The notes: generated by a model not told the origin, from the letters alone. Positions 15,586 to 60,138 are shown, numbered from the stretch's first letter. The stretch: DNA of 64,000 nt from an uncultured virus (IMG/VR IMGVR_UViG_3300028593_000715) (IMGVR_UViG_3300028593_000715); one strand, 5' to 3'. A program made the numbers and translations.

Positions 15586-15597
15586 CTCCTGTTATGG

Positions 15598-15626
15598 TTG
15601 ACAATGAATCTCACATGTGATATAAT
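15598..15626 (+). promoter_or_regulatory. Sigma70 promoter of HNH moron
   Basis: TTGACA-17 bp-TATAAT with TGn extension. Confidence 0.8.
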
Positions 15627-15661
15627 ATGTACATTACTCTCGCTACTAAAGGAGGATTAAA

Positions 15662-16740
15662 ATGCAATACAATCAAATTCTATCAGATCTTACGATTGGA
15701 CCGGGTCCGGATCCAATTGGACCTTCGCCTTTTCAAATTCGCAGTATTATAGAACAGGCACTTGTTTCAGATAATTATACTGTAAATTGGATTAACAGAA
15801 AACACCAACCGTATCAATTAACCGTAGACAATGGGACTGGCCAAATTGATTTATATATATACGCATGGAGAATTTCGAATGGAGGTCGTCCTAATCTTCT
15901 AGATGAAAAACGTATACAAATTCAGAAAGGTATTGATGCAACAGGATTTAAGAGACCAATCTCAAATACTGAAAAAACTCTTTTGTTAGGTATCTATGAA
16001 TCTCCTGTGGGACCAGTTTTTGCAGCTTGGGATGCAACATATAATAAAAATTGGGGCGCATCTCAAAAATCGTGCCAAGTTAAGGTTCAAGAATTACTAA
16101 ATGGAATCCGTAATGGCATCAACGAATGTAAAGATTCACACAATAATATAATATATACTTTCATACCATCATACTTGGGTGATTATATTGATTTATTGCA
16201 AAAAGGTAATAGGTTGCAAGCCACAGCAGTTGTTGGTGGCGCAAACGGAACGATCACTAGTGGTTCAATAAAAAAAGCAACTCTTCCTAACAGAAAAAAA
16301 GAGTATTGCGATCAACCAACTCGTTACTCTCTTCTGTTGCAAAAATAAGTACAACTGAAAAAGAGTCTATTATTAAGCAGCGAATTGGTCAAGGACTTTT
16401 TAAAGAACTTCTAAAAAACAAATATGGCTGTAAATGTGCACTTTGTCAGATCACGACAGAATCAATGCTGGTCGCAAGTCATATAAAAAAGTGGTCTGAT
16501 TGTGTTAGCGATTCTGAACGTTTAGACGTAAATAACGGTCTTTTGCTGTGCCCTCATCATGATGCTTTGTTTGATAAACACCTGATTACTTTTGATGAGG
16601 GCACAGGAACACTCATTGTGTCTACGACGTTATCTTCAAGCGAAAAGGCTGCACTTAGTATTGCGAATATACCAAATATTCAAATAACACCAGAAATGAA
16701 ACCATATTTGGCAGATCATCATGCAAAGCTGAAAAAATAG
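15662..16740 (+). CDS. Moron: putative restriction nuclease (N-terminal recognition domain plus C-terminal HNH), split into two frames at A7 16294-16300
   Basis: ORFs 15662-16348 and 16306-16740; RIGQGLFK..CALC..LVASHIKKW..NGLLLCPHHDALFD HNH motif; AT-rich, opposite strand. Confidence 0.8.
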
Positions 16741-21947: not shown

Positions 21948-22720
21948 TTACCATTCATTTAGTCCATCGTTTATATCTTTAGGTGCCGTATCTATTTTAT
22001 AAATAAAAGCACCAAATGAAGCATTGTTTATACGGAACAATTCCGTTGCTGTTAAATACCTGCTTCCTTGCTCTGCAATTGCAAGTGCTAATCCCAAGCA
22101 CTGATATTCTTCTGAAAGAGGCTTTAGCTTGTAATCAGAGAAATGGACTTTTACATTTATGCAACCATCGCCCTCATAAACTCCAATACCGGATCGACAT
22201 ACGCAATAATTTCCGATTTCAAAAGCTGCATACATATCTTTAACAAGGTTTGGATATAGAGATAAAACTTTTCTTTTAAAGTCATATATTTTTGCTTCAA
22301 CATCAGAAGGAATAGCTTGCTCAATAAATGCTCTACTTCTACCTAAAGAATTTAGAATATTCTGGCTATATGCCTCAGATACTTTTATTGTATATATTGT
22401 CTTATACCATTTACTGGCGGACATATATTCTTTGTGTGGTTCAATAGATTGCAATTCATCATTATCTAATACAGTGTTTTTGGCAAATGTCAAACCTTTT
22501 GGAAGCCTTTTAAGTGTTAATTCACATTCTTGCATCTGTTCTTTATCATAGTTTGAACAGGAAGCGGTCAATTCCCAACGATACTTAAAAAAGCTTTTTT
22601 TGATCTATATAATTCACGCCACCGAATAGTTTTATATTCCAATTCACAACTGCCGCCATTTGCATATAGGCATTTGTTTCGTATTTGATGAAGGATTCGA
22701 TTGACTTCATTTTTATCCAT
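21948..22720 (-). CDS. Moron: hypothetical protein with apparent frameshift at A7 near 22595-22601
   Basis: RBS and ATG at 22720; main ORF 21948-22571 is in the -1 frame. Confidence 0.6.
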
Positions 22721-27675: not shown

Positions 27676-28332
27676 TCATGTTTGAAAATTCAGCCGTGCG
27701 TATTCCCCAAAATAGAATACAGCGGCTCTGTCATATGCGTGTGCGGCATCAACAGGATTCGAGAAATATCCGAGAAACTTAAAATGTCCATCCGGATGAA
27801 TATAAGCCATAAATCTGCCTTTATGCTTATCAAAACAAACGCCTTTGTATCCTGTGGTATTTGAAACGGGCATTGCTGAATTTTGTGTATTGCAGTGCTG
27901 TGATGTTATGCGGAGATTGCATCTGCGGTTATCATAGGGGTGACCATTGATATGATCGACAACACCGTCGGGAAAGCCCATCAGCAATCTGTGAAGTTTT
28001 ATTCTGCGCCCTTCTTTTGACTGTGCAGTCGCATATCCTTCTTTGGATACCGACCAGTAGTAGGCGGTAACAACAGCAAGGTCGGCCGTATCGAAAATGA
28101 ATGAACGACCGCTTTTCACTATGCATTTCATATGATCACCGACCGATTCATACCGGTCTGCGCAATGTCCGCAGGTTTTGGTATGCCCGCTTCGCAGGTA
28201 AGAACCTCTTATCTCTGCTGTATTGCCGCAATCGCATCTGCAATACCATACCGTATCGCGTCCTTTGTACATACCGCACGGGGAGATTACAGTAAGATGG
28301 TTGCATCTCGCGCCTGTCATATCAATTTTCAT
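27676..28332 (-). CDS. HNH-AP2 homing endonuclease
   Basis: WYCRCDCG, VDHINGHPYDNRRCNLR and AP2-like LGYF..P.DAAHAYDRAA. Confidence 0.85.
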   Translation of the reverse strand: MKIDMTGARCNHLTVISPCGMYKGRDTVWYCRCDCGNTAEIRGSYLRSGHTKTCGHCADRYESVGDHMKCIVKSGRSFIFDTADLAVVTAYYWSVSKEGYATAQSKEGRRIKLHRLLMGFPDGVVDHINGHPYDNRRCNLRITSQHCNTQNSAMPVSNTTGYKGVCFDKHKGRFMAYIHPDGHFKFLGYFSNPVDAAHAYDRAAVFYFGEYARLNFQT

Positions 28333-29587
28333 TGATGTTATCATCACCGCCTTTTTCATACGCAGCCCCTGCCATATTCAGCGGAGTCATGCTTCCGTTT
28401 ACCATGAAAGTATTGCCGCCTTCCTCGTCGGGGATAGAATTCATATCCTCCAGCGTCCTCACATCATTCGGGCACAGGAAGCCGTTCTGAATACCAATAC
28501 TATAGCCCTGCATTCTGCTTGCATAATCGCCGCGCAGCAGCCCTTCCACGTTGAATTTGATAAAGTAGCGTCCCTTTTCCGAATCCGAAAGCAGAGCCTT
28601 CTGCAATCCCTGTTCCCAGCGCACCAGCCACGGATCAAGGGTATACTTGACGAATTCCAGCGACAGATGCTCGATGTTGGAGAAGGTTGCATGGTCGAGG
28701 TCGCCGATCATGTGCAGCGGCACTCGGTAGAGCCTTGCAATCTCCTCAATCTGGAATTTGCGGGTTTCAAGGAACTGCGCCTCATTATTCGGAATGGAAA
28801 TCGGCGTGTACTTCATACCTTCTTCGAGGATTGCGGTCTTGTGGGCATTGCCGCTGCCGTATGCCCGCTGCCATGCCTCACGCACACGCTCCGGGTTTTT
28901 GATCACGCCCGGATGCTCCAGCACCGCCGAGGGCGATGCGCCGTTTGCAAAAAACGATGCACCGTATTCATCACAGGCGACCGCAAGCCCGATGGCGTTT
29001 TTCGCCATTGCAATGGGGCTGTATCCGACCAGACCGTCAAAGCCCAGTCCCGGAATATGCAGCACCTGTTCCATCGGCAGGATGATCTCACCCTGCTGCC
29101 TGAAATTCGGGTTGTGTTCGTCGTACCGGCTGTAGCGGTAAATGAGCCTGCCGCGATCGTCACGGTCAACACGCACCTTATCCGGCATCAGCGGATACAG
29201 CCCGATGACATCACCTCTGCCGTTTCGGATAATCTGCGCATAGGCGTTACCGTAGATCAGCAGGTGTGCCATCAGCGTTTCCCGGAAAACGAATGACGTC
29301 ATTTCCGGATTCGGCTGGTCGTGCAGCAAAAAATATAGCGGGTGCCTCGGCACTCGCTCTTTTCCGTTATCGGTGTACTGGTAGACGTGCAGCGGCAATT
29401 GTGCAATCGCCTCCGACAAAACTCTCACGCAGGCGTAAACCGCAATGATCTGCATTGCCGTGCGGTCGTTGACACGCTTACCTGCCTGTGTCCGTCCGAA
29501 GAAATAACTGTATGACGGGCTGTCGTAGCTGTCCTTCGGCTTGTCCCGTGACCGGAACAGTCCGCTGAAAATGCCCATGAGCATCAC
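28322..29587 (-). CDS. Portal protein (HK97 family)
   Basis: VYACVRVLSEAIAQLP, PNPEMT and QFLETRKF motifs. Confidence 0.95.
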   Translation of the reverse strand: MMLMGIFSGLFRSRDKPKDSYDSPSYSYFFGRTQAGKRVNDRTAMQIIAVYACVRVLSEAIAQLPLHVYQYTDNGKERVPRHPLYFLLHDQPNPEMTSFVFRETLMAHLLIYGNAYAQIIRNGRGDVIGLYPLMPDKVRVDRDDRGRLIYRYSRYDEHNPNFRQQGEIILPMEQVLHIPGLGFDGLVGYSPIAMAKNAIGLAVACDEYGASFFANGASPSAVLEHPGVIKNPERVREAWQRAYGSGNAHKTAILEEGMKYTPISIPNNEAQFLETRKFQIEEIARLYRVPLHMIGDLDHATFSNIEHLSLEFVKYTLDPWLVRWEQGLQKALLSDSEKGRYFIKFNVEGLLRGDYASRMQGYSIGIQNGFLCPNDVRTLEDMNSIPDEEGGNTFMVNGSMTPLNMAGAAYEKGGDDNINEN

Positions 29588-29595
29588 TCCTCTCG

Positions 29596-29624
29596 TTGAC
29601 TTTTTGTATGACTTGTGATATAAT
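29596..29624 (+). promoter_or_regulatory. Sigma70 promoter of GIY-YIG moron
   Basis: TTGACT-17-TATAAT with TGn. Confidence 0.75.
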
Positions 29625-29677
29625 AAAGGAAAACGGAGAATTCCGCTGTAAATCGGAATTTAAAGGAGAAGAATGTT

Positions 29678-30670
29678 ATGGATTACTTTATTGACAGTAC
29701 CCTGCTCAATTATCAATTGATTAGACTGAATAAGCTTGGGTTTCCGGAATTAGAAAAGAATACAAATATAAGAGTTGTTGTAAAGAGCGGTGACAACTTT
29801 TATTCGTTTGATGATTGCCATATTGATGACACGGATGATAGAAGATTGAGAACACCATTGCCAATTGTAATTTGGATAAAAGAGAATTTTCCTGTTTCAG
29901 TTGCATTTTTCGCTGCAAATGCCGATAAAAAAGCCCCCGGCGTTTGGAAGAAAGATGATATTGCAGCCTTCAAAAAAGCATTAAAATCTCCCGAACATAA
30001 AATGGATATACCTGCTGAAACTTTAAATATTACTTTAGAACAAGATGAAAACGGCGTGAATTATCTCCTTATCCAAGAAGGATTCAAGATCACTTGTGAA
30101 AATGCCGAACGTTATCTCTCGGCAAAAGCTCTTTGTTCTGTTTTGCCGTATATCATATCCGGCGTTCAGAATACGTCATTGAAAACAGACATTTCTAACG
30201 GTCGTAAGGCTTATATCATTGACCAGACAACAAAGTGGCTTTCTGTTTCAGAGTATACTGCAACCCCTTTTAATCATCCGGGAATCTATATTCTTAGAAG
30301 AAAATGTGATGATAGGCAGTATTCATATTACATTGGAAAAGCAACTGATATTAAAACGCGTGTGATGAGGAATGGAGGAAAGCTATCACATCCTGATGAA
30401 AAAGAATTGGATGATAAGCAGTACGATGACATTGCGTGCATTTCGATTCGATTTGACGATATTCTCAGGGTATATGATTGTTTGACAGAGAATAATGAAA
30501 CAAAGGAACAGAACCCTCCGGTAAGCAAGGGAAGTCAGGTTGATTACGCTTTATATTCTATTGAAGATATCGCGATTCATGTTGCTGCGATGATAATGTT
30601 AAGTGAAGGAAAAAGGCTTGACAACAAGCAATATAGAGAATATACAAGCGAACAAATTGCTAAATTCTGA
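29678..30670 (+). CDS. Moron: GIY-YIG-like nuclease domain protein
   Basis: GIYIL...YYIGKATDIKTR motif; AT-rich, opposite strand. Confidence 0.7.
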   Translation: MDYFIDSTLLNYQLIRLNKLGFPELEKNTNIRVVVKSGDNFYSFDDCHIDDTDDRRLRTPLPIVIWIKENFPVSVAFFAANADKKAPGVWKKDDIAAFKKALKSPEHKMDIPAETLNITLEQDENGVNYLLIQEGFKITCENAERYLSAKALCSVLPYIISGVQNTSLKTDISNGRKAYIIDQTTKWLSVSEYTATPFNHPGIYILRRKCDDRQYSYYIGKATDIKTRVMRNGGKLSHPDEKELDDKQYDDIACISIRFDDILRVYDCLTENNETKEQNPPVSKGSQVDYALYSIEDIAIHVAAMIMLSEGKRLDNKQYREYTSEQIAKF

Positions 30671-30679
30671 TTTGTAGCT

Positions 30680-32281
30680 CTACAAAACCAGCATCTCCCT
30701 GCTGTCATAAATGCTGTCGCCGGAGTCGTTCCCACAGCGGATTGCCCGGTCGAGAGCCATGATCGTGGCAACCGTTCCGTCGATCTTCTCTGTGGACTTT
30801 TCCTTGTCGGGCTTGATGTTGCCCGCCGGATCGCGCTTGATGAAAATGTTATCCATATTCCAGCGCAGCACCGGATGCCCGTTGTGGGCGATCTTCTGCT
30901 CCAGCGTCAGCTTCATCAGCTCTTTGGTCGGCGGAGACATATCACGGTAGCCCTGACCGAACTGCACCAGCGTGAAGCCCAGCCCTTCAAGGTTCTGCGA
31001 CATCTGCACCGCGCCCCAGCGGTCGAAGGCGATCTCCCGGATGTTGAACCGTGTCCCAAGTTCGTCGATGAAGTTTTCGATGAAGCCGTAATGCACGACG
31101 TTGCCCTCGGTCGTCAGAAGGTAGCCCTGCTTTTCCCAGAGGTCGTATGGAACGTGGTCACGGCGGACACGGAGGTCAAGCGTTTCCTCCGGCAGCCAGA
31201 AATACGGCAAGATATAGTAATGGGCGTCCTCTTCGGTCGGCGGAAACACCAGAACGAAAGCCGTGATGTCCGTGGTCGAGGACAAGTCCAGACCGCCGTA
31301 ACATACACGACCTTCGAGGAAGGATTCATCGAAATCGACCTTGCAGGCGTCCCATTTGTGCATCGGCATCCAGCGGACGGTCTGCTTCACCCATTGATTC
31401 AGACGAAGCTGTCGGAAGGCGTTTTCTTCGCCGGGATTCTGCTTGGCGGATTCGCAAGCGGCTTCCACCTTGTCCATGCCGATTGTTTCACCGAGGGACG
31501 GATTCGAGTTTTTCCAGACCTCCGGAGAAGTCCAGTCGGCATCATCGGGAGCGCCGTAGATGACTGGGTAGAAGGTCTTGTCAATTTTTCTTCCCTCAAG
31601 GATATCTTTTGCTTTCTGATGCTGCTCGTAGCAGATGCTGTTCGTGTCCGTGCCTGCCGTTGTGATAAGGAAATACAGCGGCTGCATTCGAGCATCGCCG
31701 GAGCCTTTCGTCATAACGTCAAACAGCTTTCGATTCGGCTGGGTATGAAGTTCATCGAACACGACTCCGTGGATGTTGAAGCCGTGTTTGCTGTACGCCT
31801 CGGCGGAAAGCACCTGATAGAAGGAGTTGGTCGGGACGTACACGATGCGCTTCTGCGAAGTCAGTATCTTCACTCGCTTATTCAGCGCAGGACACATTCG
31901 TACCATGTCAGCGGCGACATCGAACACAATCGCCGCCTGCTGCCGGTCGGCAGCGCAGCCGTACACCTCGGCACGTTCCTCGCCGTCCCCACAGGTAAGC
32001 AGCAGGGCGACCGCAGCGGCAAGCTCTGACTTTCCGTTCTTCTTCGGAATTTCGATGTATGCCGTGTTGAATTGGCGGTAGCCGTTGGGCTTCAGAACAC
32101 CAAACAGGTCACGGATGATGCGCTCCTGCCAGTCGATCAACTCGAAGGGCTTTCCCGCCCATGTGCCTTTCGTGTGGGCAAGGCACTCGATAAACCGGAC
32201 AGCGTAGTCAGCGGCGGCTTTATCGTAATGGGAATCCTCCGCCATGAACTGCGTCGGTGTATAATCTTTCAGCTTTCGCAA
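30680..32281 (-). CDS. terL: Terminase large subunit
   Basis: IPKKNGKSEL Walker A, VVFDELH Walker B, KIDG nuclease motif. Confidence 0.95.
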   Translation of the reverse strand: MRKLKDYTPTQFMAEDSHYDKAAADYAVRFIECLAHTKGTWAGKPFELIDWQERIIRDLFGVLKPNGYRQFNTAYIEIPKKNGKSELAAAVALLLTCGDGEERAEVYGCAADRQQAAIVFDVAADMVRMCPALNKRVKILTSQKRIVYVPTNSFYQVLSAEAYSKHGFNIHGVVFDELHTQPNRKLFDVMTKGSGDARMQPLYFLITTAGTDTNSICYEQHQKAKDILEGRKIDKTFYPVIYGAPDDADWTSPEVWKNSNPSLGETIGMDKVEAACESAKQNPGEENAFRQLRLNQWVKQTVRWMPMHKWDACKVDFDESFLEGRVCYGGLDLSSTTDITAFVLVFPPTEEDAHYYILPYFWLPEETLDLRVRRDHVPYDLWEKQGYLLTTEGNVVHYGFIENFIDELGTRFNIREIAFDRWGAVQMSQNLEGLGFTLVQFGQGYRDMSPPTKELMKLTLEQKIAHNGHPVLRWNMDNIFIKRDPAGNIKPDKEKSTEKIDGTVATIMALDRAIRCGNDSGDSIYDSREMLVL

Positions 32282-32335
32282 GTGCCTCACCTCCATGAGA
32301 AAGGCGGCTGCCCTCCGGTAGCCGCCTTCGTGTTT

Positions 32336-32575
32336 TTAGTTGTATTCGTGCATCAGGATCGCCAGCGCCATTTCCGCTGCCTCGTTCTGCGGCGGAACAT
32401 CCAGCCCCCGGTCGTAGTTGTAAACAACCTCGCCGCTGATCTTCAGCGTTGCCTTGCTGATCCTGCCTCCGTCGATCCCGTACTGGCTGCCTGCGTCGTA
32501 GGCTTTCACCCAGTAATGAACGACCGAGTACTTGCCGTCGCCCTTCGGAACTCCAATCGTACCTTCGTGCCACAT
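32336..32575 (-). CDS. Small conserved phage protein
   Basis: GGAGG RBS; S.YGIDGGRISK..YNYDRGLD. Confidence 0.75.
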   Translation of the reverse strand: MWHEGTIGVPKGDGKYSVVHYWVKAYDAGSQYGIDGGRISKATLKISGEVVYNYDRGLDVPPQNEAAEMALAILMHEYN

Positions 32576-32734
32576 ATTCGTTTCCTCCGTTTTTCGTAGT
32601 TTTCGGTGGGCTTTGCCCTTCCGTTGTGCCCATATTAACTCTAAACGGCGAATATAGCAAGCCGCTAAAACTACAGAAGATTCGGGGAAAATGTGCGGCG
32701 GGTGTTGTGTATAATACACCCGCCGCTGTGATCC

Positions 32735-33088
32735 TTATTCGCCGAGAGGAATCGGCATCAGGATGTTGCCAACCAGCACGAAATCGTATGCCTGCCGGAA
32801 GAACTCCGTGTACTTTTCGGTCAGCTCCTGCGGCAGGTCGGTGAAGTCATCCTCGCCCAAGCCGCAAAGGAAGAACGTCCCCTTGATGACGCCATAGCCT
32901 TTGATCGGGCGATTCCACTTCTGTTCCGGATGGTAGAGTGCTTCCTCCTCGCATACCAAAGCGACCGGATCATCAAAGGGGTAAATCGCCTGAATGTATC
33001 CGCCGACCGTCTGCTGCAGGCTTTCAAGCTCTCCGCTGATCTCCTTTGCATCTGGGCGCTTGCCCGGTTCAACAACTAAAATGTTCAT
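32735..33088 (-). CDS. DUF3846-like protein
   Basis: LVVEPG..P and LESLQQTVGGYI motifs. Confidence 0.75.
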   Translation of the reverse strand: MNILVVEPGKRPDAKEISGELESLQQTVGGYIQAIYPFDDPVALVCEEEALYHPEQKWNRPIKGYGVIKGTFFLCGLGEDDFTDLPQELTEKYTEFFRQAYDFVLVGNILMPIPLGE

Positions 33089-33331
33089 GTGAATTCTCCT
33101 TTGTGTTTATTCCGCTTCTCTTGCGGTAGTGACATATTAACTCTGAACCGAGGATATATCAAGCATTATCGGCAAAATAAATGTGACAAACATTGCCTGC
33201 ATTTCAGCGCTGAATTGTACATTGCAAGAGAGCCGCACACGTGCGCTGTGTGGGGCGGGTTACCGAAAGGGATACCGTTTCAAGGATACCCGTCCCGCGC
33301 CACACGTTGCAACGTGGCGGCTCTGTGCGCC

Positions 33332-33535
33332 TTATTCTTCGCCTTCGTACTTCTCGTGGATGATGCCGAGAATCTTGTCCTGTTCCTCGCGTCCGACGCC
33401 GATGCTTTCAAGCGCCTCACGCGTTCCGCAGTCGGGGCAGATCGGGCTGTTATCCACGCGGGAAAGTGCTGGTCGGGCGGTGTACGTCTGCCCGCATTTC
33501 GGGCAGATGTGCGGCTCTTTGTTGCGGTCTTTCAT
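33332..33535 (-). CDS. Small zinc-finger protein
   Basis: CPKCG...PALSRVDN..ICPDCG. Confidence 0.75.
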   Translation of the reverse strand: MKDRNKEPHICPKCGQTYTARPALSRVDNSPICPDCGTREALESIGVGREEQDKILGIIHEKYEGEE

Positions 33536-33993
33536 CGCTGTACCTCCTTTGCGCTGATCTCGTAGGCGGCATCAAGGAACTTGGTGTCGAAGCCGAAGTT
33601 CCGGTAGCCTTCCTCGCAGGTGCGGATGTATGTCAGCGAAGGAATCCCGTGCCTGCGCTCCTCGTGCATGATGTAGATGAAGGCGTCCACCTTCTTGGTC
33701 TTACCGTTTCTCAGTTTCACCGGCAGCCGCAGCTCCTTCTTGTAGTAGAAGGTCGGGCAGCCCTCGTAGGCGTCCAGCCGCTTCTCGTCCGCTTCCGTGA
33801 CCTCCCAGACCGCAATCGGTACCAGTCCGTCCTTCTTCGGTTCGATGGTGAGGTAGGCTCCCGTGCCGCTGCCCTTGTAGAGCAGCTCATAGTCGGGAAT
33901 CGCCGTGATGCCGATGGGCTTGGCTGACGGGCAGCGGTACCGCATCTGGCGGATGTTCAGGTTTGAACCGTATGCGAGGTAGTATCTTTTCAT
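33532..33993 (-). CDS. Gamma-glutamylcyclotransferase (AIG2/GGCT-like)
   Basis: YLAYGSNL and LDAYEG motifs. Confidence 0.9.
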   Translation of the reverse strand: MKRYYLAYGSNLNIRQMRYRCPSAKPIGITAIPDYELLYKGSGTGAYLTIEPKKDGLVPIAVWEVTEADEKRLDAYEGCPTFYYKKELRLPVKLRNGKTKKVDAFIYIMHEERRHGIPSLTYIRTCEEGYRNFGFDTKFLDAAYEISAKEVQR

Positions 33994-34266
33994 TGCTTTT
34001 CTCCTTTTGTCTTGGATTCCGTTTTCGTTCCGGTACACACATATTAACTCTTTTCCGGCTCTATATCAAGCCGGTAAAACTACAAAAGATATGTGGATTT
34101 CCGGGCTTGCGGTTGTGTAGAATATGCCTTGCCGCTGTTTGCGCCGTGTGCGCCCCGTACAGGGCTTTTTACCGAAAGGGGCAGTTACTCGGAGGATACC
34201 ACTCCCGCCCCACACGGGGCGCTGTGGGCGGCTGTTTCGCCGCCCTTGCCCGTGGCGGCAGACCGG

Positions 34267-35211
34267 TTAAGGTCTGCCGAAGCGGAAGGCGTTGTCGCCG
34301 GAAAGGTTCTGCGTCAGGGTTTCTCTTGCGGTGGCGAACTCGTCGCCAATGAAGCCCATTCTCATCAGCCAAGTCCGCATCGCGAACTTTTTGTTTTCCT
34401 TCTGCTGTTCCTTCGGGCTTGCGCTGCGCAGGTCTTTTGCCATCTGGCTCATCGCAAGGCAAAGCTGAATGTAGCTCTTGAGCTTGCCTGCGTGAAGCCC
34501 GTTCTGCTTGCCGCCTGCGGGCTTGTCGAACTGGAAAAGGCGGAATTCAATCGTGCCTTTTGTGAAGGTGGCGTGGAGGTTCAACATATGGTAGCGGCTG
34601 TCGTTGTAGTGGTGGGTTCTGCCGTAGTCGCATCCCTGTGCGCCGTACCAGATGTCTGCAAGCTGCGCCATCGTGGTGGGCTTCTTCTTGTTGAGCTGCT
34701 GCAGGAAATTCGGGTTTACCGTTCTGCAGTAGCGGTTCATGCGGCTGCTGTCAACCTTGATTGCTTCGGCGATCAGCGTTTCGTGGCTTGCCATCAGGTT
34801 TGCGAGGTTTCTTAGGCTCTGCGGTGTGTGTCCCGCTGCGCCGATGTGAATGTGAACTCCGCAGCCTCTGGTGTAGTCGCTCTTTGCGCCCGCCTTGCGG
34901 AGGCGGCGGATCAGCTCCTGCAGGGTTTCGATGTCCTCGTAGTGCAGGATCGGTGTAACCAGTTCGCACTTTTCGCTGTCCGGTCCGCTGATGCTGCAGT
35001 CGCGCTGGAATTTCCACTCGCGTCCCTGTGCGTCCCAAGCGCTGTAGGTTTCGTAGCCGTTGCGGTGGGCGGTGTACTCGCTGCGGTTTGTGCCGAAGAA
35101 CTCGGCGGCGAGCTTTGCGGCAGCCTTGCGGGTGATGTTGTTCATCTCAACCTCAACCCCGATCGACTGCTCCTTCATTCTGTTGATCTGTGCCTGTGTC
35201 TTTGCGTTCAT
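34267..35211 (-). CDS. Putative amidoligase (COOH-NH2 ligase type 2)
   Basis: IGVEVEM, D.SI, ELVTPIL, CGVHIHI, RY..LNL and TIEFRLF motifs. Confidence 0.9.
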   Translation of the reverse strand: MNAKTQAQINRMKEQSIGVEVEMNNITRKAAAKLAAEFFGTNRSEYTAHRNGYETYSAWDAQGREWKFQRDCSISGPDSEKCELVTPILHYEDIETLQELIRRLRKAGAKSDYTRGCGVHIHIGAAGHTPQSLRNLANLMASHETLIAEAIKVDSSRMNRYCRTVNPNFLQQLNKKKPTTMAQLADIWYGAQGCDYGRTHHYNDSRYHMLNLHATFTKGTIEFRLFQFDKPAGGKQNGLHAGKLKSYIQLCLAMSQMAKDLRSASPKEQQKENKKFAMRTWLMRMGFIGDEFATARETLTQNLSGDNAFRFGRP

Positions 35212-35435
35212 GGTGGTATCCTCCTGTTTGGTTTTTGGTGTGTTTTCCCTTTCGGTAGTCACATATTAACTCTAAACCGAGGATATATCAAGCCGCTAAA
35301 ACCACAGAATATTGAGGAAAATACAGCCTTGATGATTGTGTAGTATACACCCTTGACTTACTTGCAATTGTGTGGTAATATGGGGTACGATGGAATAGGT
35401 CGTCACATTTCCGGCAGCCCCCGGAGGCTGTAAAA

Positions 35436-35666
35436 TCAGCCGCCGGAGATGACCTCGAACTCATCTGCGCCTTCAATCAGCGCAAGGCTTCTGCCGTTGT
35501 CCCACTTCATGTGGATATTGCCCGCGTCGTCGATGATCGCAACCGAGCCGGTCGTACCGGGCGGCACTGGCGCGATGTCATCCGCCATGCGAATCAGGCG
35601 GATGCGGGTGCCTGCGGGATAACGCTCCCGCAGGGCTTTCAGTTCAGCGTCATTCGGAAACCGCAT
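35436..35666 (-). CDS. DUF4314-like protein
   Basis: YPAGTRIRL..M.D and G.IHMKWDNGRSL motifs. Confidence 0.8.
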   Translation of the reverse strand: MRFPNDAELKALRERYPAGTRIRLIRMADDIAPVPPGTTGSVAIIDDAGNIHMKWDNGRSLALIEGADEFEVISGG

Positions 35667-36300
35667 CGTCGGCGCCTCCTTCGGGCTTGCCGTGGCGGAA
35701 GGCGGAGCTTCCGATCAGGCGGCGGAGCAGAACCTTGCGCACCGGCTTGTACTCTTCGCCGATCATGCCGAGGCGCAGGAGGAAGCAGCGGAATGCGTAC
35801 TTCTCATTGTCGCTGGTATCCGGCTTGTTGACCACGCGCTTGAGGTTCTTTGTGAACTCGCAGAGGGCGGTAATGAAGCGGGCATAGGCATCGCCATCGC
35901 CGTCCTTCTCGACCGTGAACCACGGGAACTCGACCGTTTCCTCACACTCGTTGACCGCAAGGCTCTCCGTATTCAGTGCGTGCTTCAGGAGCGTTTCCTT
36001 GTTGGCGATGAGCTGGAGCAGATTGTTCATCGACTGCTCCGTGAAGAAATCCCTCGGCATCGAAATCGTCATGGCTTCCGGCTCGTCCTCTGCGGTGTAG
36101 CCTGCCTTCTGCAATTCACTCCGGATGTCGTCCGGAAGCTCATCGCCGTGCAGCACCGCTTCCTTGTCGAGGGTGTATGCTCCGATCTGGTATCCGCAGC
36201 TCGGAACGCCGAGGTACTTCACCTCGCTGCCGGTCAGCTCACCGATCTTCTGTGCCAGTGCCTTGCGCTGGCTCTTTTCAATATTGAATCTGATATTCAT
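35650..36300 (-). CDS. Conserved phage protein (often labelled virulence-related)
   Basis: YLGVPS..Y and NEKYAFRCFLLRLG motifs; C-terminus resembles that of the amidoligase. Confidence 0.75.
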   Translation of the reverse strand: MNIRFNIEKSQRKALAQKIGELTGSEVKYLGVPSCGYQIGAYTLDKEAVLHGDELPDDIRSELQKAGYTAEDEPEAMTISMPRDFFTEQSMNNLLQLIANKETLLKHALNTESLAVNECEETVEFPWFTVEKDGDGDAYARFITALCEFTKNLKRVVNKPDTSDNEKYAFRCFLLRLGMIGEEYKPVRKVLLRRLIGSSAFRHGKPEGGADDAVSE

Positions 36301-36469
36301 GATGTGACCTCCTGTTTTTCACCGCTTGCTGCGGTTTTGAGTGTAGTAAACAGTCCAGTGGACTGTTTAGATATTAACTCTGAATCGCACAGATAGCAAG
36401 ACTGTAAAACGGAGAATATGTGCAGGACGGTTTTTCCGATTTTTGTGCATATTACAGTGCCTCCAGATA

Positions 36470-36498
36470 TTGACATATTGGCGGATGCACTGTATAAT
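36470..36498 (+). promoter_or_regulatory. Consensus sigma70 promoter of GNAT moron
   Basis: TTGACA-17-TATAAT. Confidence 0.85.
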
Positions 36499-36531
36499 CA
36501 TAGTAATAGAAATCGGAATTTGGAGTGTTAT

Positions 36532-36969
36532 ATGTTAATTCAATTAAAAGAACTTGATAATGACAATTGGCTTGAAACGTCAAATCTATCTGTTTCAGAA
36601 AAACAAAAAGAATTCTTCCCCATATCAAATATTTATTGGATAGGAATAAGCAGATATGAAGAACACACTGATCTCTATGCTATAATGCTTGATGAAACAA
36701 TTATCGGGTTAATTGGTCTTGGCTATGATGAGGACGGTGTATCGGGGTTTATCAATCCGTTAATGATTGATATAAATTATCAAGGTAATCATTATGCTGA
36801 AAAAGCAATGGCTATTGCAATTGATATTTTGCAGAAAAACTATAATGTTACAAAAATCAATCTCGGACATCGAAAATCAAATACCGCAGCGGCAAGACTA
36901 TACGAAAAGCTCGGTTTTGAAATTATTGGTGAAGATGAACAGGATTATTTCCGCACAAAAGTCTTATAA
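36532..36969 (+). CDS. Moron: GNAT acetyltransferase
   Basis: LMID..YQGNHYA and N.AAARLYEKLGF motifs. Confidence 0.85.
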   Translation: MLIQLKELDNDNWLETSNLSVSEKQKEFFPISNIYWIGISRYEEHTDLYAIMLDETIIGLIGLGYDEDGVSGFINPLMIDINYQGNHYAEKAMAIAIDILQKNYNVTKINLGHRKSNTAAARLYEKLGFEIIGEDEQDYFRTKVL

Positions 36970-36996
36970 ATTCTGATTTACGCGAATAATACACCA

Positions 36997-38256
36997 TCAG
37001 CCTTCCTTCGTCTCGACCTCTTTGACCAGATCGGAATAAGGAATCTGCTGTCCGTTACGAATCACATACACGCCTTCGGCATTCCCGGTGTCTTCAACAT
37101 AGCGGCGGAGAATGACGGAGGCGTATTTTTCATCAAGCTCCATCATGCAGCAGATGCGGTTCATCTGCTCACACGCCATGAGCGTCGAGCCGCTGCCGCC
37201 GAAGGTGTCGATGACCACGCCGTTCTCCTGCGTGGAGTTGCCGATTGGATAACCGAGCAGGTCGAGGGGCTTGGAGGTCGGATGGTTGGCGTTCCGCTTC
37301 GGCTTATCGAAATTCCAGATGGTCGTCTGCTTGCGGTCGGAATACCACTTGTGCTTGCCGTTCTGCATGAAGCCATACAGCACCGGCTCGTGCTGCCACT
37401 GATAGTCTGAGCGTCCCAGCACCAGACTGTCCTTCACCCAGATGCAGCAGCCTGCAAGGTGGAAACCCGCATCGATGAACGCACGGCGGAAGTTCAGACC
37501 TTCGGTATCTGCGTGGAACACATAAGCCGCACCGCCCTTTTCGAGGTGGTCTGCCATACACTTGAAAGCGGAGAGCAGGAAGTTGTAGAACTCCTCGTTC
37601 TTCATGCTGTCGTTCTGGATGGTCAGACCGCTGGCGCTCTTGAAAGACACACCGTAGGGCGGATCGGTCAGGATCAGATTTGCCTTGACATCGCCCATGA
37701 GTGTATTTACATCTTCTGGGCTGGTCGCATCACCGCACATGAGGCGATGCCTGCCGACCGTCCACACATCACCACGCTCCACGAAGGAAGCCTTCTCAAG
37801 CGCCGCCGTCAGGTCGAAATCATCGTCCTTCGCATCGGAGTCCGTGCCGTCGGAGAACAGGTCAGCCAGCTCCTTTTCGTCGAAGCCGGTCATGGAGAGG
37901 TCGTAGCCGAGGTCTTGCAGCTCCTGCATCTCCACGGCGAGCAGTTCCTCGTCCCAGCCTGCGTCCATTGCCATGCGGTTATCGGCAAGGATGTAGGCTT
38001 TCTTCTGTGCCTCGGTCAGGTGATCAACATAGACACACGGCACTTCCGTGATGCCTTCCTCCTTCGCCGCCATCAGGCGACCGTGACCTGCGATGACATT
38101 GTACTCCCGGTCGATGATGACCGGATTGACGAAGCCGAACTCACGCAGCGAGGAACGGAGCTTCTTGATCTGCTCCGGCGAATGGGTGCGGGCGTTATTC
38201 ACATAGGGGATGAGCTTGTCGGTGGCGACAAGCTGAAAATCTGTTGTTGTTTTCAT
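36997..38256 (-). CDS. ParB-domain DNA adenine/N4-cytosine methyltransferase
   Basis: ParB-like N-terminus (IAGHGRL); TDPPY, HPTSKP and DTFGGSGST motifs. Confidence 0.92.
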   Translation of the reverse strand: MKTTTDFQLVATDKLIPYVNNARTHSPEQIKKLRSSLREFGFVNPVIIDREYNVIAGHGRLMAAKEEGITEVPCVYVDHLTEAQKKAYILADNRMAMDAGWDEELLAVEMQELQDLGYDLSMTGFDEKELADLFSDGTDSDAKDDDFDLTAALEKASFVERGDVWTVGRHRLMCGDATSPEDVNTLMGDVKANLILTDPPYGVSFKSASGLTIQNDSMKNEEFYNFLLSAFKCMADHLEKGGAAYVFHADTEGLNFRRAFIDAGFHLAGCCIWVKDSLVLGRSDYQWQHEPVLYGFMQNGKHKWYSDRKQTTIWNFDKPKRNANHPTSKPLDLLGYPIGNSTQENGVVIDTFGGSGSTLMACEQMNRICCMMELDEKYASVILRRYVEDTGNAEGVYVIRNGQQIPYSDLVKEVETKEG

Positions 38257-52825: not shown

Positions 52826-54742
52826 CTACGAATCCAATTCGCATAGAGTTACCTTTAGTTTTGCCTGATTAAGGTACATTTGCCAGCGTTCTATAGTCTC
52901 ATCCGTATGCTCGTCTACGAGCCATCTGAAGAACCTGCCTTCCATTGTATTTGGAAAATCCATACCGATTTTCTTCATCAAGTCATAGCAATATTCTTTG
53001 TTAAGATTCAGGCCAATAAACAGTTTTAGCAAGGTGTGGAAAGAGACAGTCTTGTCCGTCTTATTGCGCAGTTCGCTAATTGTCTGCGTACTGAGGTTTG
53101 AACGTTCACTCAGCATCTCCGCAGTAAGTCCTTTGCGGGTAATATGGTAGTCGACAGTTTTATGGAATGAACCGGGCAGTTCATCGAAATCGCTTTCAAA
53201 CTGTTGCGACAGCTTAACAATTTCTGCAATGGCAGCAGCCTCTTCCTCGGTCAATTGGTTCTTGGCGAGTTCGGCATCATACTCCGCTTCGAGCAAGGAG
53301 TCAGCTGTGACCTCACGGCACAAAAAGCAGGCACGATAAAACGAGTCATCATAATCAAACTTGATGCGCTTTTTACAGGTGAATAGGAAACAACATTCAT
53401 CGACATGATCCAGTGCATACTGCGTCATTTCTGGATGCTCTTCATCATTGAACTGAATATACTTTGGTGAATTTATACAGAGCATATTGTTTACGAAAAC
53501 AATCCTGCTCTCTTTATAGAGGGCATCCAGAGCCGGGTGCGTTATAATCATGCGTAGTGCACTGATAGAATCTACTACGAAACTGCCGTTTTTGCCAATG
53601 ATCTTAGAACCAAAGGAGAAGTGGGGGATGGACTTTCCTTCTATGTATACATATGTACCATGTGCTTGTTCAAAGCCCAACTCAATAGCGCGGAGTTTGG
53701 CTGCAAGTCGGGAAACCTGAAAGAAATCAGCGGTATCCTGAATTGCCTGAGCCATTACTTCCGCATCTCTGGTGCTTGCTGGCATACACTGACGCAAATC
53801 ATGAAGTCGATCTTGAATGAACTTTTTAGTAGTAGATGCGGGCATCAGGATTTTCGGAGCAAGGGTGTTTGCCTGCCACTCGATCCACTCCAGTGGGGTC
53901 GATTTTGCTTTATCTTTTCCATACGCTTCAACAATCTCGCAAGATACAAAACGGTATTCTTGCCTCAGTAAGCGCATCAGTTCAAAAAACATTTTGTGTC
54001 GCTTCCAATGTACACACTCATGAATAATCGTATTATTCATCGTTCCGATATTGTACATAAAAAACACATCTGGATTCACCAGCATAGTTCCCGGCGGCAC
54101 TGTAATTTCCTCAGTTTTCGGATATTTGTTGCCTTTATATACCGTGACCGTGGAAGTCACAAAATATGTTTTACCGAAAATGTTATCATCCAGCGGCGCA
54201 AGATACAACTTCATTCCCAGATCACTGACAATTTCCTGTATAGGCAGCGGCATGGCTGTATCCAATGCCTTTGCACAATGGTCGCGCAGGAAATCTTCCG
54301 CTACTTTATCAGCATCTTCGCTGTAGAGATAAGGGACAAGGTAATGATCGAGAGCGGTTTCTTTATCAAACTTCTCTTTACTGTACTCTTCCACATGAAC
54401 AATCCTAACGCCATGCAGTCCATCCTTCAATATGCCCTCAAAATATACGGACATCCAAACTGACTTTGAATCTGATTCATAATCATAACGAGATTTGCCA
54501 GATACAATGACATCGGCATTAATGCTTAAACGGAAATGCAGAGCATCACCTCCGGGCGTCTTAAAAGTCGCTCCCATAACATGATAGTCGTCCAATTCAA
54601 ATTTGCATACATCCGGAATAAGATTTGTTGACAGAAACGAAGATCCTTTTTTCTGAAATAAGAAACTGTTGATCTTTTTATATATTGCATCATAGTAATT
54701 ATCGTACATATACTCTTCAAAAGTATGGTAAGTCTTCATCAT
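52826..54742 (-). CDS. ImmA/IrrE-like metallopeptidase with C-terminal XRE HTH
   Basis: IIHECVH and EWQAN..A..ILMP motifs; C-terminal HTH. Confidence 0.85.
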   Translation of the reverse strand: MMKTYHTFEEYMYDNYYDAIYKKINSFLFQKKGSSFLSTNLIPDVCKFELDDYHVMGATFKTPGGDALHFRLSINADVIVSGKSRYDYESDSKSVWMSVYFEGILKDGLHGVRIVHVEEYSKEKFDKETALDHYLVPYLYSEDADKVAEDFLRDHCAKALDTAMPLPIQEIVSDLGMKLYLAPLDDNIFGKTYFVTSTVTVYKGNKYPKTEEITVPPGTMLVNPDVFFMYNIGTMNNTIIHECVHWKRHKMFFELMRLLRQEYRFVSCEIVEAYGKDKAKSTPLEWIEWQANTLAPKILMPASTTKKFIQDRLHDLRQCMPASTRDAEVMAQAIQDTADFFQVSRLAAKLRAIELGFEQAHGTYVYIEGKSIPHFSFGSKIIGKNGSFVVDSISALRMIITHPALDALYKESRIVFVNNMLCINSPKYIQFNDEEHPEMTQYALDHVDECCFLFTCKKRIKFDYDDSFYRACFLCREVTADSLLEAEYDAELAKNQLTEEEAAAIAEIVKLSQQFESDFDELPGSFHKTVDYHITRKGLTAEMLSERSNLSTQTISELRNKTDKTVSFHTLLKLFIGLNLNKEYCYDLMKKIGMDFPNTMEGRFFRWLVDEHTDETIERWQMYLNQAKLKVTLCELDS

Positions 54743-54899
54743 AGTGACTCCTTTCGAGAGAGGTGTTGCTTGTATATGTACTATTATAGCATATTTCTAC
54801 GATATTTACAAGGTAATCAATGGGCTGCTCAAAATAGCCAATATTAACAGACTATTTATATAAAAAGCATCGAATGTACGAGTGTCGCAATAAAAAGCT

Positions 54900-54948
54900 C
54901 GAAAAGTCATAGTATACTATTGACTTTTCGTCTGCTTTGATATATAAT
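54900..54948 (+). promoter_or_regulatory. RM operon promoter with palindromic operator
   Basis: TTGACT-17-TATAAT; CGAAAAGTCA...TGACTTTTCG inverted repeat covers the -35. Confidence 0.75.
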
Positions 54949-54993
54949 GGAAAGAGTGCTAAACACCCTAAAGATGCTAGAGAGGAGTATATA

Positions 54994-55194
54994 ATGGGAA
55001 TCAACTACAAAAAGTTGTGGAAACTACTAATAGATAAAGATATGACCAAAACTGATTTGCGTATGCAAACGGACATAGCATCAAGTACTTTATCTAAGAT
55101 GAGCAGAAATGAATATGTATCTTTAGATGTTCTCGTAAGAATTTGTTGTGTTCTTGATTGTGAACTAAGCGACATTACAGAAATTGAAAAATGA
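54994..55194 (+). CDS. Small XRE/Cro HTH regulator (likely RM controller)
   Basis: YKKLWKLLIDKDM.KTDL motif. Confidence 0.9.
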   Translation: MGINYKKLWKLLIDKDMTKTDLRMQTDIASSTLSKMSRNEYVSLDVLVRICCVLDCELSDITEIEK

Positions 55195-55212
55195 AATCGA
55201 GGTTTTATATTA

Positions 55213-56283
55213 ATGGCAAAGAGTAAAAAGCTGCCTATTGGGGCTGTTAGTTTGTTTTCTGGTGCAGGTGGTCTTGATGTTGCAAGTTTCCTTGCTGGTG
55301 TTCCTGTTTTATCAAGCACAGATTTTGATGATGACTGTATTGAGACACTCAAACTGAACGACTTGTACGGAGATACAGAAATAATAAAAGGTGATCTTCA
55401 TGAAATTTCTAGTGATGTTTTCAAGTCGATAGTTCAGAAAAGAAATCCGGAAAAGTTCATCGTTATTGGTGGTGCACCGTGTCAGCCATTTTCTAAAGCC
55501 GGATACTGGGTTGGCAATAGTACCCGTAAAGGAATAAACGATCCAAGAGCAACTTTAGTAGACGAATATTTACGTGTTGTAACAGATTTACATCCGGCAG
55601 GATTTGTTTTTGAGAATGTTGAAAGTTTACTTCATCCTACAAACAAAGTTATTGTTGACAAATTTATCGAGATCATTCAACAACAAGGTTACAAGTACAA
55701 GATTGTTCGTGCTAATGCTCTTGATTATGGAGTATCACAAAAAAGAAAAAGGTTATTCATTATTGGAACGACTGGTGAATTCAAATCTGAAGCACCTCGA
55801 AAAACAAACTGTCCGCCAGAGGAATGTGAAGCAACAGGTCTTAAGCCTTATGTTAATGTCGGTGAAGTGATTAGTGGCTTTGACGGTCCAGAATTCTTTG
55901 AGCCGGAAGAAGTCACCAAAGGCGGCACATATCATTCTGATCTGTGCGAGGTTCCTCCAGGAATGAATTATAAAGCACTGACCGCATGGTATGGCTATGA
56001 AAATCCTAAATTTGTTGCCGACAAAAGATTTTGGAGTTTCCTGCTGAAGTTGTCACCTGATATGCCTTCGTGGACAATTACAGCGCAACCGGGTCCTTGG
56101 GTTGGACCTTTCCATTGGGATAACAGACGTTTAAGAGTGCCAGAGATTGCAGCTATTCAAACTTTCCCAAAAGGATATAAGTTTTATGGTAGCAGAAGAT
56201 CTATCCAGAAACAAATCGGCAATGCTGTGCCATCGTTAATGGGTAAGGCAATGATAGAATTTCTGAAGGAGAGTTTGGAATAA
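55213..56283 (+). CDS. C5 cytosine DNA methyltransferase 1
   Basis: FSGAGG, PCQPFS, ENV and QIGNAV motifs. Confidence 0.95.
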   Translation: MAKSKKLPIGAVSLFSGAGGLDVASFLAGVPVLSSTDFDDDCIETLKLNDLYGDTEIIKGDLHEISSDVFKSIVQKRNPEKFIVIGGAPCQPFSKAGYWVGNSTRKGINDPRATLVDEYLRVVTDLHPAGFVFENVESLLHPTNKVIVDKFIEIIQQQGYKYKIVRANALDYGVSQKRKRLFIIGTTGEFKSEAPRKTNCPPEECEATGLKPYVNVGEVISGFDGPEFFEPEEVTKGGTYHSDLCEVPPGMNYKALTAWYGYENPKFVADKRFWSFLLKLSPDMPSWTITAQPGPWVGPFHWDNRRLRVPEIAAIQTFPKGYKFYGSRRSIQKQIGNAVPSLMGKAMIEFLKESLE

Positions 56284-57344
56284 TGGCGATAAATGTACTA
56301 AGTATATTTTCCGGCGGTGGTGGTATAGACTGTGGCTTCCGTAAAGCAGGATTTGAAATTGCTTTTTCTACTGATTTCTGGGAGCCCGCATGTCAGACAC
56401 TTGAAAAAAACCATAGTAGTAAGCTGGTTAAGTGCTGCGATATACGAAAAGTAAATTATGAACAAGAATTAGCTTCAATTGGGATGAAGCTTTCTGATAT
56501 TGATGTATTAGCAGGAGGCCCGCCGTGTCCTGCTTACTCAAAATCTAGATTTTACAGAACAGATAAGAAACGAGCATTGGAAGATGAGAACTCATTTACT
56601 CTTTACGAGTACTTCCGTGCACTCGAAGAAATACGTCCGAGAGTTTTCTTTTTCGAGAATGTCTTTGGCTTTGTTTATAAGCCACACAAAGCAGCATTCG
56701 ATTTGCTGAAAGAGCGAGCAGATACACTCGGCTATGACATTAGTTTCAAAGTGATAAACACTGCAAACTATGGTGTTCCACAGATTCGAGAACGTTTCAT
56801 TTGTGTAGGAATAAAGCGAGGCTTCGGTTCTCCTTTCGTTTTTCCTGACGAAACACATTATAATCCTGAAAAAGGAACTCCACTTGACAGCAATATGCGT
56901 CCGTGGGTAACTTGTGGAGAAGCTATAGGTGATTTAGATTATGATCTTCCCGAGGACGTGAATATGCAAGCAGGCTCAAAGCATAAAGACCTTCTGAAAC
57001 TTGTGCCTCCGGGAGACAACTATCTTTACTTCACTGCGGAAAGAGGCTATCCGAATCCGATTTTTAAGTGGCGTTCGCGTTATTGGTCGTTTTTACTTAA
57101 ATTGTCTCCGGAAAAGCCATCATGGACGATACAGGCAAGTTTTTCAAATAATATGGGACCGTTCCACTGGAAGAATAGATTCCTCAGAATTAATGAAATT
57201 AAACGTATACAAACTTTCCCTGATGACTATGAATTCTGCGGAGATTTCAGAGATCAGTGGCGTCAAATCGGAAATGCAGTTCCGCCTCATCTTGTTGAAC
57301 AGATTGCATCTGAAATTGAAAAACAATACTTTACTGAAAAATAG
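56283..57344 (+). CDS. C5 cytosine DNA methyltransferase 2
   Basis: FSGGGG, PPCPAYS, ENV and QIGNAV motifs. Confidence 0.95.
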   Translation: MAINVLSIFSGGGGIDCGFRKAGFEIAFSTDFWEPACQTLEKNHSSKLVKCCDIRKVNYEQELASIGMKLSDIDVLAGGPPCPAYSKSRFYRTDKKRALEDENSFTLYEYFRALEEIRPRVFFFENVFGFVYKPHKAAFDLLKERADTLGYDISFKVINTANYGVPQIRERFICVGIKRGFGSPFVFPDETHYNPEKGTPLDSNMRPWVTCGEAIGDLDYDLPEDVNMQAGSKHKDLLKLVPPGDNYLYFTAERGYPNPIFKWRSRYWSFLLKLSPEKPSWTIQASFSNNMGPFHWKNRFLRINEIKRIQTFPDDYEFCGDFRDQWRQIGNAVPPHLVEQIASEIEKQYFTEK

Positions 57345-57355
57345 GGAGGTAAAAA

Positions 57356-60135: not shown

Positions 60136-60138
60136 AAT

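Follow-up and report, generated by a model that had tools for sequence, protein, structure and literature searches.

Integrons and clusters of attC sites lacking integron-integrases (CALINs) hold promoterless cassettes, mostly of a single open reading frame (ORF), behind a resident promoter and in tandem co-directional arrays, and integrons are reportedly absent from Firmicutes. The dif modules of Acinetobacter plasmids lie between inversely oriented pdif sites and are moved by the host recombinases XerC/XerD (PMC6449649, PMC13141974), and a single module is described there as not excisable, its relocation taking place via cointegration and then resolution at another site pair (PMC13141974). 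In T4-type phages, short intergenic elements, the promoter early stem-loops (PeSLs), flank non-essential genes in hyperplastic regions and are points of modular shuffling (PMC2839356, PMC4122927). Morons and phage hotspots, such as the P2/P4 defence hotspots, are AT-rich extra genes with their own promoter at fixed hypervariable positions (PMC9122126). Here we analyse two single-gene morons in a 64-kb stretch of DNA (64,000 nucleotides, hereafter the window) from an uncultured virus, IMGVR_UViG_3300028593_000715, that are bounded by inward-facing copies of one short site, here called S. We know of no conserved border site in classical morons and hotspots. We put it at an even chance that the two morons are members of a single family of promoterless single-ORF cassettes, which are replaced whole via crossovers in S.

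Site S, AAAYYRGRATTT, occurs exactly four times in the window, with 0.19 copies expected and four copies reached in 0 of 100 shuffles. All four copies stand at cassette borders with the GAATTT end toward the ORF each time, so that they face inward. Read on the + strand, the left site (L) of both cassettes is AAATCGGAATTT and the right site (R) is AAATTCTGATTT (Table 1). With up to one mismatch allowed, AAATCGGAATTT has 6 matches (0.62 expected) and AAATTCTGATTT has 5 (0.71 expected), and none of 100 shuffles reaches either count. Two one-mismatch relatives, AAATTCAGATTT and AAATCGGAAATT, at 3602-3613 inside the GmrSD gene and at 22208-22219 inside an AT-rich minus-strand ORF, are probably chance matches. 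Cassette 1 occupies slot 1, between the portal gene and the gene of the terminase large subunit (terL), and cassette 2 occupies slot 2, beside a DNA methyltransferase (MTase) gene. L precedes the ribosome-binding site (RBS) by 2 nt in cassette 1 and by 0 nt in cassette 2, and the terL stop codon lies 6 nt past R of cassette 1. In 29400-37200, the best two sigma-70-like promoters each stand just upstream of an L site. From either cassette's end to the convergent gene, the + strand holds no terminator-like site, and no target duplication is visible at either cassette by direct reading. The sequence-only reading of this DNA had given the same positions for the 12-mers, had placed the right one over the stop codon and the promoters outside the bounded units, and had seen no target duplication; all of this is upheld, and the four copies fit a single inward-facing site.

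Both units have the features of morons, namely their own promoter, a deviant base composition and a position between conserved genes; an own terminator is absent. Their GC content is 0.34-0.37 (bins centred on them) against 0.5-0.6 in the prophage, and they lie on the + strand, with the surrounding prophage genes on the opposite strand. Since both are AT-rich and sit in the same phage, the shared 12-mers might stem from the duplication of one moron, or match by chance, and have no role. The shuffles and the differing sequence around the sites in the two slots disagree with this, as does the recurrence of the same sites in other phage families, one conjugative-element locus and chromosomes, and we give this explanation next to no credence; it is already refuted by S in viral contigs, by an 809-bp cassette common to two contexts and by junctions in genomes, all described below.

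We compared the two slots in a set of 160 sister loci, which included 80 terL relatives (68 with both terL and portal) and 52 loci in which the MTase slot was measurable, and scanned the window, its relatives and public collections for the sites. The terL-portal slot is empty in 20 of the 68 loci (5-26 bp, also without a promoter), holds 73-76 bp in 2 and carries 376-3093 bp of varied cargo in 46; gaps in the MTase slot range from 121 to 2730 bp. In the terL slot, four different cargos are bounded by an exact L and an R-type site; for the MTase slot, the number of different cargos or arrays bounded in this way is seven. Different cargo between the same ends, which the sequence-only reading had suggested looking for, was thus found. 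Several different inserts of the 86-100% terL subgroup are built alike, in that the promoter is conserved, a hairpin is present in some, and (C)AAATCGGAATTT leads to RBS and ORF. Their right end is AAATTCCAATTT, AAATTCCAGTTT or AAATTCTGATTT, 8-19 nt before the terL stop; other inserts of this subgroup keep the promoter and lack S. Cargos of the MTase slot lie between AAATCGGAATTT (AAATCGGTATTT in locus L100) and AAATTCTGATTT (AAATTCTGGTTT in L160). The promoter type of slot 1 is kept in sister phages bearing other cargo, and the promoter of slot 2 is kept in sisters both with and without site-bounded cargo. At a third slot, between the tape measure and tail genes, three proviruses carry a 968-bp unit made up of a promoter, a hairpin, AAATCGGGATTT, a transporter-like gene, AAATTCTGATTT and a real terminator; the gene product reads like a multi-pass membrane transporter, judged from its sequence and not from Pfam. 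A fourth slot, between tape measure and Dit genes, holds another S-bounded cassette. Terminators are present in sister units of other slots, unlike in the window cassettes.

The cassettes are exchanged as units. In L006, the closest terL-slot sister with other cargo, homology to the window stops at 29661 and restarts at 30662. At the MTase slot, it stops at 36521-36531 and restarts at 36959-36968 in 6 of 17 sisters, and in L105 it stops at 36521 and restarts at 36983. Among 24 sequencing runs, all searched as contigs, a contig of run X9 (~94% identical) tracks the window to 36521 and then diverges; in runs X4 and X7, 29578 is joined to 30780, a joint with one side of only 24 nt that probably comes from a relative. 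One cassette was found in two unrelated contexts, as the MTase slot of L098 and the tape measure-Dit slot of L224, another siphophage, have 809 bp in common at 99.4% identity. This stretch opens with the first base of L and extends 1 nt beyond R, with nothing similar outside and the linkers not included. L006, these MTase-slot sisters and this 809-bp cassette bear out the earlier proposal of promoterless RBS and ORF units that are exchanged as units behind resident promoters, and S is a frequent exchange point, not the sole one.

Two further loci contain other elements beside S-type sites. The 3093-bp terL-portal insert of the sister phage L010 (IMGVR_UViG_3300010351_000456) has an IS3-type insertion sequence behind the resident promoter, then a hairpin with AAATCGAAATTT, a short leader ORF and the gene of a 486-aa protein, with AAATTCCAATTT closing the unit; judged by its ORF translation, the protein resembles an ATPase of ABC-F type that has two ABC domains. 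In L233 (IMGVR_UViG_2799112465_000005), promoter and L are followed by a long GC-rich hairpin and, further on, by a cargo-less element (AAATCATAATTT, 9 nt, AAATTATGATTT) that may be an empty unit.

An identical unit in two places (L098/L224) and the cargo-less L, 9 nt, R element of L233 would also suit non-autonomous, cargo-bearing transposons similar to miniature inverted-repeat transposable elements (MITEs), with terminal inverted repeats of 12-14 bp cut by a transposase encoded elsewhere. The borders do form inward-facing terminal inverted repeats of a length typical of such elements, often extending to AC/GT. However, a target-site duplication is absent at all junctions read, at which the units stand directly behind a promoter or another cassette and not at random places, and the many unrelated sites that mark MITEs are likewise not seen. 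No empty target was seen, and no transposase is linked to the units, the IS3-type elements in L010 and L224 being separate insertions. We therefore regard transposition as improbable.

Inverted sites around a promoterless ORF, with the promoter outside and two serine recombinases in the prophage, also call to mind an on/off switch, in which an invertase would flip the ORF relative to the fixed promoter. The orientation of the cassettes speaks against this, because promoter and L occur together in 12 distinct contexts of the 160 sister loci and promoter and inverted R in 0, and the contigs examined show no cassette in both orientations. Inversion does not account for different cargo between the same sites either, and the serine recombinases are of the large type, at the prophage end, in an integrase-like placement. 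We rejected the switch, which we consider very unlikely, on the absence of any inverted cassette among the sister loci.

Cassettes also stand in tandem arrays. In L100, four of them follow one promoter, and their joints consist of R, a linker of 13-23 nt and L. In viral contigs scanned for TATAAT, 8-38 nt and L (80 of at least 117 stretches examined), an R-type site lies within 3.4 kb downstream of 30 of the 80 L sites vs 7 upstream, and the platforms among the matches listed include several unrelated ones in phages of 0.43-0.56 GC. The composite R-linker-L was seen in viral contigs only in the L100 contig and in one chance match inside a gene of an unrelated phage. A scan of species genomes for the same composite (80 of at least 121 stretches examined) gave 23 loci with an ORF end at R and an RBS and start after L, 22 of them in named Clostridia or Erysipelotrichia, and such junctions often lie within arrays rich in GNATs; 12 of the 80 loci are perfect palindromes and most of the remainder look like chance. 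Bounded ORFs in related Clostridia, which the sequence-only reading had advised scanning for, are thereby found in the form of a stop-R-linker-L-RBS-start junction.

Two chromosomal arrays were mapped. Butyrivibrio sp. X503 (L354) has ~20 small co-directional genes, among them 7 GNATs, methyltransferases, DUF1349, a HAD-family gene, a flavin reductase, an S51 peptidase and AbiEii, and Holdemanella biformis DSM 3989 (L305) has ~10 small co-directional genes, with GNATs, a GyrI-like gene, a hydrolase and a methyltransferase. Both arrays have R at the stops and junctions of R-linker-L or a single 12-mer, and both are flanked by ordinary chromosomal genes. A few linker types recur with different neighbour genes in different families. 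One Faecalibacterium contig carries cassettes beside conjugative-element genes, and at L337 a Tn916-type integrase is nearby, which belongs to an integrative and conjugative element (ICE). In the Lachnospiraceae metagenome-assembled genome of L337, a 1228-bp tandem duplication (L337/L338) with identical R-linker-L junctions at its bounds adjoins this integrase.

The distribution of S is wide and sporadic. Five genomes, chosen because they bear junctions, contain 3-13 exact sites each vs 0-3 in the reversed control; of the 37 exact L sites in them, 19 are followed at 8-23 nt by a start codon with an RBS. In an even sample of 60 genomes from one order, 5 contain L followed by GGAG, at 1-2 sites each, and the reversed control gives 0. 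Such a sporadic element fits mobile DNA, not a clade-wide signal.

As in integrons and CALINs, these units are promoterless, mostly single-ORF cassettes behind a resident promoter, they form tandem co-directional arrays, and their cargo is rich in GNATs, methyltransferases and small uncharacterised proteins. Unlike in integrons, no IntI was found among the window ORFs or beside the arrays L305, L354, L336 and L361, and direct reading showed no attC, which is an imperfect palindrome of 57-141 bp with RYYYAAC / GTTRRRY cores. The S borders of 12-14 bp are inverted, not direct, have no such core motifs and match no Rfam family, in agreement with the lack of attC structure claimed before. No single-site empty platform was seen, and the common DNA of the 809-bp cassette ends at both sites with the linker excluded.

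Based on these results, we propose the following scheme for the replacement of whole cassettes. A cassette consists of two inward-facing copies of the 12-14 bp site S around a promoterless ORF, L reading (AC)AAATCGGRATTT directly before the cassette's own RBS and R reading AAATTCYRRTTT(GT) at or over the stop codon. The phage would provide fixed expression platforms in intergenic slots, each opening with a strong sigma-70 promoter and closed downstream by a terminator or by the end of a convergent gene. Two S-bearing DNA molecules would recombine twice, once inside L and once inside R; the partners could be co-resident phages, ICEs or chromosomal arrays, and the outcome would be replacement, neither insertion nor excision, by the route proposed for the Acinetobacter dif modules. 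Inverted sites, the lack of empty platforms and common DNA with both sites and neither linker together point to replacement by two crossovers (L-L and R-R); as the two sites are inverted, a site-specific enzyme would give inversion and not excision. The sequence-only reading had instead favoured an integron-like delivery by a site-specific recombinase acting in trans, with circular cassettes, an empty single site in the sister slots and a co-occurring recombinase to be looked for. This part is not supported, since the sites are inverted, none of the 68 terL-slot and 52 MTase-slot loci is a single-site empty platform, and no recombinase was found beside the four arrays named above, nor was a co-occurring enzyme identified.

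The resemblance to dif modules extends to several features, since in both systems inverted copies of one site bracket the cargo, the same module occurs in different contexts and modules lie side by side; the accounts of dif modules considered here also place no recombinase gene in or beside the module. The pdif sites are composed of separate XerC- and XerD-binding halves and a spacer (PMC13141974), whereas arms of the dif kind are missing in S. Where dif modules adjoin, they have a single site in common and need to alternate in type, whereas S junctions are R-linker-L or a single 12-mer. The pdif sites span ~28 bp, vs 12-14 bp for S, and S is conserved over these 12-14 bp only, with flanks that differ between contexts, so that it is not a 28-bp dif-like site (judged against the known dif consensus). 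The S units further differ from the plasmid-borne dif modules in being promoterless single ORFs trimmed to RBS and stop behind a promoter, and in residing in Firmicutes phages, a conjugative element and chromosomes.

The agent of the crossovers may be either a sequence-specific enzyme or short-homology recombination at a conserved untranslated-region element. S may be kept because a sequence-specific enzyme that acts in trans recombines DNA there; the identity of S across unrelated contexts, its restriction to mobile cassettes and its use as an inverted pair speak for such an enzyme. It is conceivable, and we suggest it tentatively, that gut Firmicutes, their phages and their ICEs trade cassettes via a dedicated trans-acting enzyme, in an undescribed system that fills the role of integrons. 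No description of S was found in the literature on integron-like cassettes in Firmicutes or Lachnospiraceae, nor in that on morons, prophage cassettes, inverted repeats and hotspots; the motif string itself matches primers only.

Several observations weigh against the replacement of cassettes through S. At the MTase slot, homology stops at 36421-36516 and restarts at 36965-37016 in 10 of 17 sisters, points unrelated to S, and most other terL-slot sisters break at the promoter and the terL stop. Exchange at such points in most sisters means that the slots recombine without S. The sequence-only reading had counted cargo exchange unrelated to the motif as an argument against itself; this argument applies to the sisters just named and not to L006 and the six MTase-slot sisters that break at S. 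The terL and MTase slots have no cargo in common among the inserts of the 160 sister loci (blastn, tblastx), and only one clean pair of the same cassette in different contexts exists among 66 cassette clusters; L185/L209, considered as a second such pair, was rejected, as its flanks are related, with homology continuing for 43 nt beyond L on the upstream side. When homology ends were scanned without bias, 1 of 623 segments had both ends at S, a result that is uninformative because phage backbones are mosaic. A search of 299 further genomes of one order for the strict composite junction gave 0 matches, and no recombinase lies beside the arrays, as said above. In L305, AAATCAGAATTT and AAATTGGAATTT both occur at L positions, so that the sequences at the L and R positions overlap and the two are not clearly two site types; the idea that L and R are heterospecific sites is weakened accordingly. 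Finally, known tyrosine or serine recombinases have, to our knowledge, core sites longer than S.

In the main alternative, S would be a cis-acting mRNA element that serves as a 5' leader just ahead of the RBS and as a 3' trailer where the stop lies. The swaps would then be by-products of ordinary or short-homology recombination, e.g. by phage annealing proteins, at the only sequences that unrelated morons share, following the logic of PeSLs. PeSL recombination and mini-circles are documented (PMC2839356). In keeping with an expression element, the distance from L to RBS and start is fixed (the 19 of 37 exact L sites given above), the distance from L to TATAAT varies from ~5 to 35 nt, and R sits at the stop, with 16 of 66 clusters sharing AA with a TAA stop and 3 having TGA inside R; S is short, and the slots recombine at non-S points too. 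The sporadic occurrence in 5 of 60 genomes disfavours a general host expression signal, and no Rfam family matches the window region or three arrays. Pairing of L with R shows no compensatory changes, the commonest R having a fixed C-A mismatch. Complementarity of the flanks beyond the 12-mers is not above chance (99 of 2000 shuffles), and a panhandle, or an insertion into a palindrome, was not supported at a significant level by it. A hairpin before L is found at some platforms only and was rejected as a general feature, with a mean z of -0.43 for 29 platforms vs -0.46 for 96 other L hits. An expression element also leaves unexplained why the 3' element is an inverted copy of the 5' element. 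We consider this explanation unlikely on balance, with a real share of the probability.

The comparison with PeSLs shows further differences. PeSLs are directly oriented and recombination between them makes mini-circles, whereas S occurs as inverted pairs. A PeSL consists of a promoter and a terminator, whereas in the S system the promoters differ between slots and the window cassettes have no terminator.

With regard to cargo, the earlier GNAT label of cargo 2 is confirmed by a match to Pfam Acetyltransf_1 (E 4.9e-13, 49.8 bits vs a cut-off of 20.7) and by the PHROG annotation acetyltransferase, and relatives of this protein with 77-81% amino-acid identity sit in S-punctuated arrays. For cargo 1, labelled GIY-YIG before, the Pfam match to GIY-YIG stays below threshold (E 0.09, 13.5 bits vs a cut-off of 22.6, residues 201-229), and Foldseek of cargo 1 against PDB gave no match at E <= 0.001. 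Its AlphaFold model (mean predicted local distance difference test score, pLDDT, 75.8) lends the label tentative support, as residues 183-322 (all matches together) align with the GIY-YIG nucleases UvrC N-domain, I-TevI, T4 EndoII and Eco29kI at Z 3.4-4.9, and the N-terminal residues 1-140 align with B3-type DNA-binding domains at Z 5.2-7.0. Cargo 1 may tentatively be seen as a B3-like DNA-binding N-domain joined to a GIY-YIG-like C-domain, the scores being middling; this layout is known from restriction and homing nucleases. The family is rare and without annotation (19 clusters), and 301 genomes of one order contain no true homolog of the 330-aa protein, with weak matches in the motif region only. 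In viral contigs, the only relatives of the cargo are identical copies of the same phage, and a comparison of both cassettes and the 809-bp cassette with named phages gave no match.

The window is for the most part filled by a siphovirus-type prophage, from ~4.5 to 51.5 kb, with lysis, tail and head genes followed by portal and terL, an amidoligase cluster, the ParB-methyltransferase and a replication module. Its nearest named phages are Acutalibacteraceae and Ruminococcus phages (76-77% identity). A scan of 69 window ORFs gave no tyrosine recombinase (no Phage_integrase match), as had been claimed, though two large serine recombinases are present, presumably the pair for integration and excision.

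Table 1. Features of the two cassettes, their slots and the prophage end, with positions counted from the first nucleotide of the window.
Feature	Position	Strand	Details
Left border site L, cassette 1	29650..29661	+	AAATCGGAATTT
Cargo 1, 330-aa protein	29678..30670	+	RBS AGGAG at 29664-29668
Right border site R, cassette 1	30662..30673	-	AAATTCTGATTT on + strand, reads AAATCAGAATTT on - strand; holds stop TGA 30668-30670
Left border site L, cassette 2	36510..36521	+	AAATCGGAATTT
Cargo 2, GNAT acetyltransferase, 145 aa	36532..36969	+	RBS GGAG at 36522-36525
Right border site R, cassette 2	36968..36979	-	AAATTCTGATTT on + strand; overlaps stop TAA 36967-36969 (last two bases common)
Resident promoter, slot 1, outside cassette	29596..29624	+	TTGACT, 17 nt, TATAAT, TG extension; 11/12
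Resident promoter, slot 2, outside cassette	36470..36498	+	TTGACA, 17 nt, TATAAT; 12/12
Short inverted repeat AATTCCG/CGGAATT, overlaps left site of cassette 1	29639..29660		7 pairs, 8-nt loop
Portal gene, left neighbour of slot 1	28322..29587	-	Pfam Phage_portal, E 6.6e-125
Terminase large subunit, right neighbour of slot 1	30680..32296	-	Pfam TerL_nuclease and TerL_ATPase
216-aa amidoligase-like gene, left neighbour of slot 2	35650..36300	-	PHROG 2443 amidoligase, E 1.7e-56
ParB-N / N6_N4 DNA methyltransferase, right neighbour of slot 2	36997..38256	-	Pfam
Two large serine recombinases	4596-6191 and 6145-7896	-	Tandem, overlapping, left prophage end

Within the prophage, a third AT-rich moron lies between the Dit and tape measure genes (15596-16740, +), with a consensus promoter and without S sites; its overlapping ORFs, MTaX1 (15662-16348) and HNH_2 (16306-16740), are possibly one gene split by a frameshift. 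An ORF between a ClpP-type protease and the portal gene (27676-28359, -) has weak HNH_3 and AP2 matches and resembles a free-standing homing endonuclease. The region adjoining slot 2 (33532-36300, -) encodes a GGACT/AIG2-like cyclotransferase, Amidoligase_2 and a second amidoligase-like gene. Host defence islands flank the prophage on both sides, on the left (205-4441) with an N6 methylase, a Tox-GHH toxin with its SUKH immunity gene and GmrSD, and on the right (52826-63869) with two C5 methylases, MTaX1-AAA_5, an LlaJI-type endonuclease, Mrr_N, an HsdM fragment, Mrr_cat and a type I R subunit.

If S is a true recombination site, abundant gut Clostridia would trade ready-to-express single genes among their temperate phages, conjugative elements and chromosomes, candidate drug-modifying and defence genes included, without an integron or a nearby recombinase. 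Under cassette exchange, the cargo carried between S sites would include acetyltransferases, nucleases, transporters and a gene of ABC-F type, and S offers a simple sequence signature for locating such cassettes in metagenomes. If S is instead an expression element, it would act as a natural insulator with which a cassette can be moved from one promoter to another, and this would be useful as well.

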